IMG/VR virus record: IMGVR_UViG_2698536471_000010
Length of the DNA stretch: 12,164 bases
Source: a virus
Lineage: Duplodnaviria; Heunggongvirae; Uroviricota; Caudoviricetes
Reading direction: 5' to 3' (one strand)
Both the position numbers and the translations under genes were made by a program. Position 1 is the stretch's first letter. Every line of letters begins with the position of its first letter. Under the pieces are notes generated by a model, which made no database searches, was not told the DNA's origin, and was given only the letters and a program-made list of their open reading frames with translations. Below are positions 2,655-3,212 of the stretch, piece after piece.

Positions 2655-3212
2655 CTAAATACGCACTTTAAGATAAGTCAGCCCCGGATGAAGCCAGTAA
2701 GCCGGCACTTTTTTAAAGGGTGGAGTATTAAAATCACGAAGAAGAGCCTCCCGCACAATTGCATCCTTATCAGCACCACTGGCCAGCGCTTCAATCTCAG
2801 CGGCTACCTGAAGATATCCCATGCAACGGCCAACGCGCTTCATCAGCCCCTGCTTTTTATTGTTCTTCAGGTAATCAATGGCAAATTCAATGAGCTCCTC
2901 ACTGTGCTGGTGCGATGGAGGTGTTACTTTCCCATTTTCTGAGATGGTTATTTTCCCAGCATCACCGGATACAACAAAGGATGGCCGGTTACACTCCCAT
3001 TCCAGCTCACTGAAATTATCATTATGAATACTGAAACACTCTGAGAGATTTCTGCTCATCACTTTCCGACAATAATCGTCAAACGCAGCAAACTGCTCAT
3101 CGCGGCGTTTTTTTTCATCTTCAGAAGGCATCAGCGTCGACAGTTTTTTATTCAGTTCAGCAATTTCATTTTCCAGACGACTGAAGCGCTGATTCATTTC
3201 TTCATGGTTCAT
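2655..3212 (-). CDS. Hypothetical soluble protein (185 aa) inserted between holin and endolysin; N-terminal predicted coiled coil
   Basis: ATG at 3212 lies immediately after the S stop, with a GGGGAG SD inside the S 3' end. No TM segment; I do not recognise the family. Confidence 0.6.
   Translation of the reverse strand: MNHEEMNQRFSRLENEIAELNKKLSTLMPSEDEKKRRDEQFAAFDDYCRKVMSRNLSECFSIHNDNFSELEWECNRPSFVVSGDAGKITISENGKVTPPSHQHSEELIEFAIDYLKNNKKQGLMKRVGRCMGYLQVAAEIEALASGADKDAIVREALLRDFNTPPFKKVPAYWLHPGLTYLKVRI

Follow-up and report, generated by a model that had tools for sequence, protein, structure and literature searches.

Pinholin/SAR-endolysin cassettes drive lysis, and hence Shiga-toxin release, in almost all Stx phages. 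The pinholin gene (S) and the endolysin gene (R) of such cassettes can be separated by a further gene: E. coli K-12 Qin has the order essQ-ydfR-rrrQ, and long forms of the same family fill the slot in Stx2 phage 86 (gp05) and in phage Stx2_95. Of the slot proteins, K-12 YdfR (103 aa) is the one with biochemical data. Through residues 1-72 it binds two ribonucleases, RNase E (at the catalytic N-terminal half) and RNase G, and RNA co-purifies with it (PMC13232886). Overproduction of YdfR changed the transcriptome little, which counts against a reading in terms of RNA metabolism (PMC13232886). Our literature search found no publication that pairs ydfR with a holin, only an incidental mention of DUF1327 and nothing useful on essQ or rrrQ; the gene is not discussed in a comparative paper on Stx-phage lysis cassettes (PMC8136144) or in a paper on Stx2e (PMC12571312). 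A second point of reference is LydB of phage P1, a soluble 147-aa protein annotated as an antagonist of the holin LydA, whose gene lies immediately downstream of lydA in the late transcript.

The stretch of DNA analysed here (the window; 12,164 nt) is the start of the late operon of a lambdoid, Stx-phage-like, stx-negative E. coli prophage. In the order of transcription, on the minus strand, it encodes hok/sok, a DUF968 protein, RusA, a Q-like antiterminator, a DNA methyltransferase, a NanS-p-type esterase, DUF1378, DUF826, an S21-type holin, a 185-aa protein, a SAR-type lysozyme, two small ORFs and Rz/Rz1. The features that matter for the argument are as follows.

8946..9512, minus strand: Q-like late antiterminator (PF06576 DUF1133, E 3.7e-105; PF06530 Phage_antitermQ, 33 bits against a 26-bit cut-off)
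8374-7298, minus strand: DNA methyltransferase
6102-4138, minus strand: NanS-p-type sialate O-acetylesterase (DUF1737 + SASA + DUF6645)
4000-3821, minus strand: DUF1378
3780-3508, minus strand: DUF826
3216..3431, minus strand: S21-type class II holin (pinholin), 71 aa, with an MYQM start (Met1, Met4); PF04971 "phage P21 holin S", E 8.5e-33; phrog_20 and phrog_9876, "holin"
3221..3224, minus strand: GGAG Shine-Dalgarno of the 185-aa gene, read from the sequence, inside the last S codons and 8 nt before the ATG
2655..3212 including the stop, minus strand: 185-aa gene, a short DUF1327-less form of the mosaic YdfR family (phrog_1085)
2619..2654, minus strand: spacer of 36 nt from the gene's stop to the endolysin ATG, with no obvious Shine-Dalgarno in the sequence
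2085..2618, minus strand: SAR-type endolysin R, 177 aa, hydrophobic N-terminus (PF00959 Phage_lysozyme, E 2.8e-24; phrog_7 "endolysin")
948..1442, minus strand: Rz i-spanin (PF03245, E 7.4e-51; phrog_13) with the embedded Rz1 o-spanin ORF at 1222-1037

The Q-like antiterminator gene (9512-8946) defines the late operon that contains the 185-aa gene. The latter resembles the accessory genes at the 5' end of Stx-phage late operons (stx, the nanS-p esterase, DUF1378, DUF826): it shares with them the Q-dependent late transcript and the location after Q and before the structural genes, and is likewise optional and of foreign base composition. Unlike those genes, which stand upstream of S, it sits within the lysis cassette, between S and R.

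Several other features of the window were recorded. The hok/sok type I toxin-antitoxin locus (11745-12069, minus strand) comprises a Hok/Gef ORF (11957-11745) and the sok RNA (12069-11895; Rfam RF01794, 118 bits). A 108-aa ORF on the plus strand (6377-6703), which bears the annotation "anti-adapter protein IraM" in the RefSeq region of identical sequence, lies between the methyltransferase and the NanS-p esterase, at the site that the stx genes occupy in Stx phages. The esterase ORF itself (4138-6102) is open for 654 codons from a TTG, and the corresponding CDS of E. coli OkiPb01713 is marked as frameshifted by RefSeq. The gap of ~640 nt between R and Rz holds the small ORFs (1542-2007, minus strand; phrog_3246 and phrog_6632) and forms a second variable slot of the lysis cassette, the position at which other Stx phages carry ant. 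Just 3' of the endolysin gene and before the small ORFs and Rz there is a strong terminator-like hairpin (1962-1994, minus strand) with a 15-bp stem and a T-run, which falls within the expected single late transcript. No tRNA genes were found in the window.

The 185-aa ORF runs on the minus strand from an ATG at 3212-3210 to a final sense codon at 2660-2658 and a stop at 2657-2655; a GTG at 3215-3213 lies one codon 5' of the ATG. It is intact and stands between an S21-type pinholin gene and a SAR endolysin gene, as the initial annotation had described, and the start and Shine-Dalgarno proposed there were also borne out: the S stop (TAG, 3218-3216) is followed by a gap of 3 nt and then by the ATG, and the GGAG lies within S. 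The same left junction, 3-4 nt after the end of S and then an ATG, is common to short, long and DUF1327-only alleles. Over 1.5 kb around the gene the sequence matches that of the bovine E. coli isolate OkiPb01713 with 100% identity; RefSeq annotates the same 558-nt CDS there, and the exact protein occurs on 494 contigs, catalogued as "hypothetical". An overlapping plus-strand ORF (2505-2942) was considered as the real gene and ruled out by homology, selection and the RefSeq annotation, all of which point to the minus-strand frame.

Base composition sets the gene apart from its neighbours. Its GC content is 44.8%, compared with 52.8% for S and 54.9% for R, and its GC3 is 43.5%, compared with 65.3% and 61.2%; the low values fit the insertion that had been proposed. 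On the minus strand from 900 to 4200, a scan limited to consensus sequences detected nothing resembling a sigma-70 promoter, and at the gene its one finding was a weak hairpin inside the gene's 3' end. With the pinholin stop directly before it and no promoter-like site of its own, the gene is expected to be expressed together with the lysis genes, from the late transcript that depends on Q, in line with the co-expression suggested earlier from its placement.

How unusual is a gene in this position? For a survey we took the 80 IMG/VR loci whose S genes resemble this one most closely (identity of at least 93%); R could be located in 74 of them. In this sample, which was not de-replicated and is biased toward E. 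coli isolates, 31 slots were empty (42%) and 43 were occupied (58%), nearly always by a mosaic YdfR-family (DUF1327) gene. The 74 cassettes divide as follows.

Empty slot, S and R abutting or overlapping: 31 loci
DUF1327 only: 20 loci
DUF1327 + coil + C-domain: 10 loci
Coil + C-domain, the type in the window: 10 loci
Other mosaics: 3 loci

The premise that S and R are normally adjacent is thus not supported, since they abut in only 31 of the 74 cassettes and the slot is also filled in K-12 Qin, phage 86 and Stx2_95. At the level of genomes, a search of 5,426 complete E. coli genomes showed DNA resembling the gene in 811, with at least 80% of the gene covered in 249 of these. The initial annotation had reasoned that its case would fail if the gene were a well-characterised, routine member of such cassettes, or if homologs carried premature stops. 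Routine it is, by both surveys; well characterised it is not. Disruptions are rare: in another set, the 80 closest IMG/VR loci, the gene is intact in 72, with exactly 185 codons kept in 41 and an intact long form in 31, and only 6 are disrupted.

The junctions of the slot are as regular as its content is variable. In empty slots the start of R overlaps the stop of S. Most occupied slots share the right junction, a 36-nt spacer followed by the ATATCC-ATG of R, and the 36-nt distance was found in 69 of the 80 related loci. Since left and right junctions are common to different alleles, exchange takes place by recombination in the flanking S and R sequence, and the slot is recombination-prone, with the conserved 3' end of the pinholin gene on one side and the 5' end of the SAR endolysin gene on the other. 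It also contains deletion variants (DUF1327-only forms of 114, 176 and 183 aa), some disrupted copies and, in some relatives, reverse-strand cargo genes. As 42% of near-identical cassettes have no insert, the gene is dispensable for lysis by S and R.

We then asked what kind of protein the gene encodes. It matches phrog_1085 (E 7.8e-113) over residues 1-185, aligned to profile positions 117-296 of 296 only, and all 15 diverse family members tested fall in the same phrog; phrog_1085 has no annotation, so membership tells nothing about function. Homologs come almost entirely from E. coli and form two groups, a short one of 185-221 aa and a long one of 268-329 aa. The long forms carry PF07041 and are named "YdfR family" or "DUF1327 domain-containing" in RefSeq. 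Alignments resolve the family into modules: an N-terminal DUF1327, a coiled-coil linker, and a variable spacer with a C-domain of ~110 aa. They are found fused in proteins of 268-329 aa, but also in part, with DUF1327 by itself in K-12 YdfR and the coil joined to the C-domain in the 185-aa form, and as neighbouring genes. Locus L048 of E. coli (1612-2511) encodes a 213-aa short form and, behind it in the same slot, a DUF1327 protein of 75 aa (34.7 bits) as a gene of its own, so the modules also occur split and in reversed order, not just fused.

The window protein consists of the coil and the C-domain, homologous to that part of the 268-329-aa long forms. DUF1327 (PF07041) is absent from it at a Pfam E-value of 0.01 or below, and BLASTP against the 103-aa K-12 YdfR returned nothing. 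It therefore shares with YdfR and phage 86 gp05 the slot between S21-type holin and lysozyme and the left junction, but it is without the family's defining domain, and no similarity to K-12 YdfR could be detected; the RNase E and RNA data for YdfR concern the domain that is missing here.

In one record of the family (L094, 2053-2943; NZ_CP054345.1) PGAP calls an open 296-aa ORF "YdfR family protein, incomplete, missing C-terminus", a pseudogene at 2053-2388, so that the C-terminal domain goes without annotation even though no stop interrupts the ORF before 2943. The idea that RefSeq matches without an annotated feature are pseudogenes was rejected on this ground, the 296-aa ORF being open in the one record examined.

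Could the 185-aa gene be a remnant without function, a long YdfR-family gene that lost its 5' part and is retained only because essential lysis genes flank it? The protein does equal the C-terminal 60% of the long forms, the slot holds the deletion variants and disrupted copies described above, and many cassettes lack the gene altogether. A recent truncation would nonetheless leave long-form sequence at the 5' end, and this is not simply what is found. From nt 116 on the gene is ~99% identical to the 296-aa alleles, and its first 115 nt belong to the short-form lineage; at the protein level the C-terminal part is 100% identical to the 296-aa alleles and the N-terminal part ~65%. Judging from these identities, the gene is a recombinant between a short-form 5' part and a long-form-like remainder. 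The short form has a conserved start of its own (MNHEEMNQ...) and alleles of 185-221 aa that are 48-94% identical, which indicates an old lineage and not a recent deletion. Against diverged alleles, dN/dS is 0.15-0.47 for residues 66-185 and 0.36-0.73 for residues 1-65; the gene is under purifying selection, with values below 0.5 in the C-domain. The retention of exactly 185 codons in 41 of 80 loci argues the same way, as does the independent origin of DUF1327-less forms in distant branches (P0128, P0135, P0139, P0154). On sequence evidence, selection, conserved length and the age of the short-form lineage contradict a pure remnant, and we regard this explanation as quite improbable.

The protein divides into three segments.

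3054..3212, minus strand: residues 1-53, acidic coiled coil or helical hairpin, pI 5.3 (heptads and AlphaFold2)
2979..3053, minus strand: residues 54-78, variable linker, probably disordered (low pLDDT and alignment indels)
2658..2978, minus strand: residues 79-185, conserved basic C-terminal domain, pI 9.1 (invariant alignment columns, pLDDT, dN/dS)

An AlphaFold2 prediction made with 25 close homologs only had a pLDDT of 51. After Salmonella-type homologs were added, giving 34 diverse sequences, the mean pLDDT rose to 76 with a pTM of 0.57, a model of moderate quality. Residues 1-53 align with the linker coil of the long forms; their hydrophobics F10, L13, I17, L20, L24 and L27 follow a 3-4-3-4-3 heptad spacing, and helices are predicted at 3-27 and 31-53, with block-mean pLDDT values of 72-90 for residues 1-40 and 61 for residues 41-50. 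In the linker, pLDDT is below 50 for residues 54-70, and other alleles carry 25-35 additional residues. The C-domain, ~107 aa in the window protein, is modeled as a sheet of three short strands (80-97) and four helices at 101-117, 123-144, 151-161 and 178-184. Block-mean pLDDT is 76-94 for residues 71-170 and ~61-63 at the C-terminal end. Its conserved elements are H103, a GRCMGYLQVAAEIE helix and a PPFK..P..W..PG..YLK.R tail; H103, R129, Q135, E139, K167 and W173 are invariant.

With a GRAVY of -0.64 and a best 19-residue Kyte-Doolittle window of 0.75, the protein is not expected to have a transmembrane segment. The predictions of a soluble product and of an N-terminal coiled coil are therefore both supported, the second by the heptad spacing and the modeled helices. 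The initial annotation had seen no direct functional clue and had called for profile and structure searches; these yielded none either. The protein had no match in Pfam (E ≤ 0.01) or NCBIfam, and at E ≤ 1 all 34 alignment members gave only coiled-coil-type noise (Relaxase_C, ABC_tran_CTD), plus DUF1327 in the long forms. The best hit of a sequence-profile search of the PDB had an E-value of 0.04 and is not meaningful, and Foldseek searches of the model against BFVD and PDB returned nothing significant. The C-domain is unclassified because neither Foldseek nor the PDB profile search gave a significant match.

Relatives outside the E. coli group are few. A profile search of 1.84 billion cluster representatives matched only 42 proteins, among which large multi-stretch matches to SRCR-repeat and HEAT-repeat proteins (two were checked) were rejected as repeat artefacts. 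The genuine distant relatives align at 24-37% identity, come from Salmonella enterica where a source is named, and have the C-domain in common. Most of them also carry a divergent DUF1327-like N-domain, so the fusion is old. In these Salmonella-type relatives the gene is found upstream of S, after Q and before an S21-type holin gene, instead of in the S-R slot. A scan of GTDB species representatives returned 3 loci, all in Escherichia or Shigella.

In a subset of loci that spans the whole divergence of the family, a conserved convergent gene of ~105 aa (phrog_1853) lies tail-to-tail directly after the C-domain gene (L002, 4359-4673; L030; L039; L040; L088, 4785-5102; L089; L095, 585-902; L096, 436-759). 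In L095 and L096 the 3' ends of the two genes overlap by 18-33 nt. The two look like a co-diverging pair. The partner had no Pfam or PADLOC match, and the window does not contain it.

Two-gene modules of this kind are characteristic of defence systems, and together with a hypervariable slot that holds reverse-strand cargo genes in some relatives, and a base composition (GC and GC3) unlike that of the flanking lysis genes, they would suit a moron that serves the lysogen by superinfection exclusion or abortive infection. The surroundings of the gene fit this poorly. The consensus scan found neither a promoter-like site on the coding strand from 900 to 4200 nor a promoter and terminator of the gene's own flanking it, and since the gene is downstream of Q within the late operon, expression in a repressed lysogen is not expected. 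PADLOC-DB 2.0 gave no match for the window protein at E ≤ 0.1, for the partner or for the long forms, one of which had only a non-significant hit to PbeC (E 0.018), and the window has no partner gene at all. A defence role is very improbable.

A role in the timing of lysis has more to recommend it. A cytoplasmic protein made stoichiometrically with the pinholin could bind the pinholin's basic C-terminal tail, or the membrane-tethered SAR endolysin, and so delay or sharpen triggering. The gene starts 3 nt past the S stop with its Shine-Dalgarno within S, and the product has an acidic N-terminal half (pI 5.3 and 4.6), in contrast to the basic tail of the holin. Every homolog examined that had enough flanking DNA lies within ~1 kb of a PF04971 holin and Phage_lysozyme pair, even at 30-40% identity. 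The insert also uncouples the start of R from the stop of S and places R behind a 36-nt spacer that lacks a Shine-Dalgarno, which could alter the S:R ratio. Finally, P1 lydB occupies an equivalent position: like LydB, the window protein is predicted to be soluble, is of similar size (185 vs 147 aa) and has a gene that directly follows that of a holin within one late transcript. The resemblance does not extend to sequence or profile, however. Alignment of the 34-sequence family profile to P1 LydB with hhalign gave a probability of 0.1% (E 0.53), and the P1 holin belongs to another family. Nor does the protein have the transmembrane or signal-anchor segment of membrane antiholins (S21-71, lambda S107, T4 RI).

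Other observations weaken the timing proposal further. Cassettes with near-identical S and R have no insert in 31 of 74 cases, so any effect on lysis timing would be optional. In distant homologs the gene is upstream of S, sometimes with other genes between, which means that coupling to S has not been conserved. Accessory genes in general insert at the 5' end of the late operon, as stx and nanS-p do in relatives, and linkage to S may reflect no more than that. We consider direct control of lysis timing unlikely; it stays alive because linkage to the holin holds at ~30% identity and because the 36-nt spacer without a Shine-Dalgarno replaces the S-R overlap.

The reading we favor, with a probability of roughly 0.45, is that this is an intact late accessory gene with a role in late RNA metabolism or host takeover and not in direct holin control. 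Most likely the product is an accessory protein of the late phase, cytoplasmic and dispensable, which may be connected with RNase E by way of DUF1327, the domain it is usually fused to. Translation would be coupled to the pinholin gene, so that the protein would appear in the cytoplasm late in infection; it may oligomerise via its coiled coil, and the conserved basic C-domain (pI 9.1) may bind a partner. An accessory role in late RNA metabolism or host takeover is the best-supported guess as to what would follow, and it is ranked first because the C-domain is persistently fused or adjacent to DUF1327, with the two joined in most of the family, Salmonella-type homologs at ~30% identity included. 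The window protein itself has no DUF1327 and no similarity to K-12 YdfR, so its link to RNase E is one of guilt by fusion only. Three further points count against the favored reading: no sequence or fold match assigns an activity, the structural model is of moderate quality (pLDDT 76, pTM 0.57), and linkage to S21-type holins and SAR endolysins down to ~30% identity would suit a lysis-related role equally well.

Pfam, PDB and BFVD contain no relative of the C-domain, which is restricted to lambdoid late operons of enterobacteria, next to S21-type pinholins. Conceivably, though we think it doubtful, it represents a new class of cytoplasmic late effector. Such an effector could be a soluble timer or modulator of lysis by pinholin and SAR endolysin, or a DUF1327-delivered RNase E effector that protects or reprograms late phage mRNA, perhaps under the control of phrog_1853 in some phages.

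The 185-aa sequence was already catalogued, and the finding is therefore no anomaly of the window. The gene is a DUF1327-less variant of a widespread, barely studied slot gene and, more generally, a common uncharacterised accessory gene of E. coli lambda-like prophages, carried inside the lysis cassette by more than half of the closely related cassettes surveyed. Its C-terminal domain has no Pfam or NCBIfam model; a domain model would mend that, and with it the PGAP pseudogene call on the 296-aa form. If the family tunes lysis timing, the yield of toxin and of phage in pathogenic E. coli would be affected. If it targets RNase E, it would offer a temperate-phage example of the takeover of host RNA decay. 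A domain with neither a library model nor a structural relative leaves room for something new.
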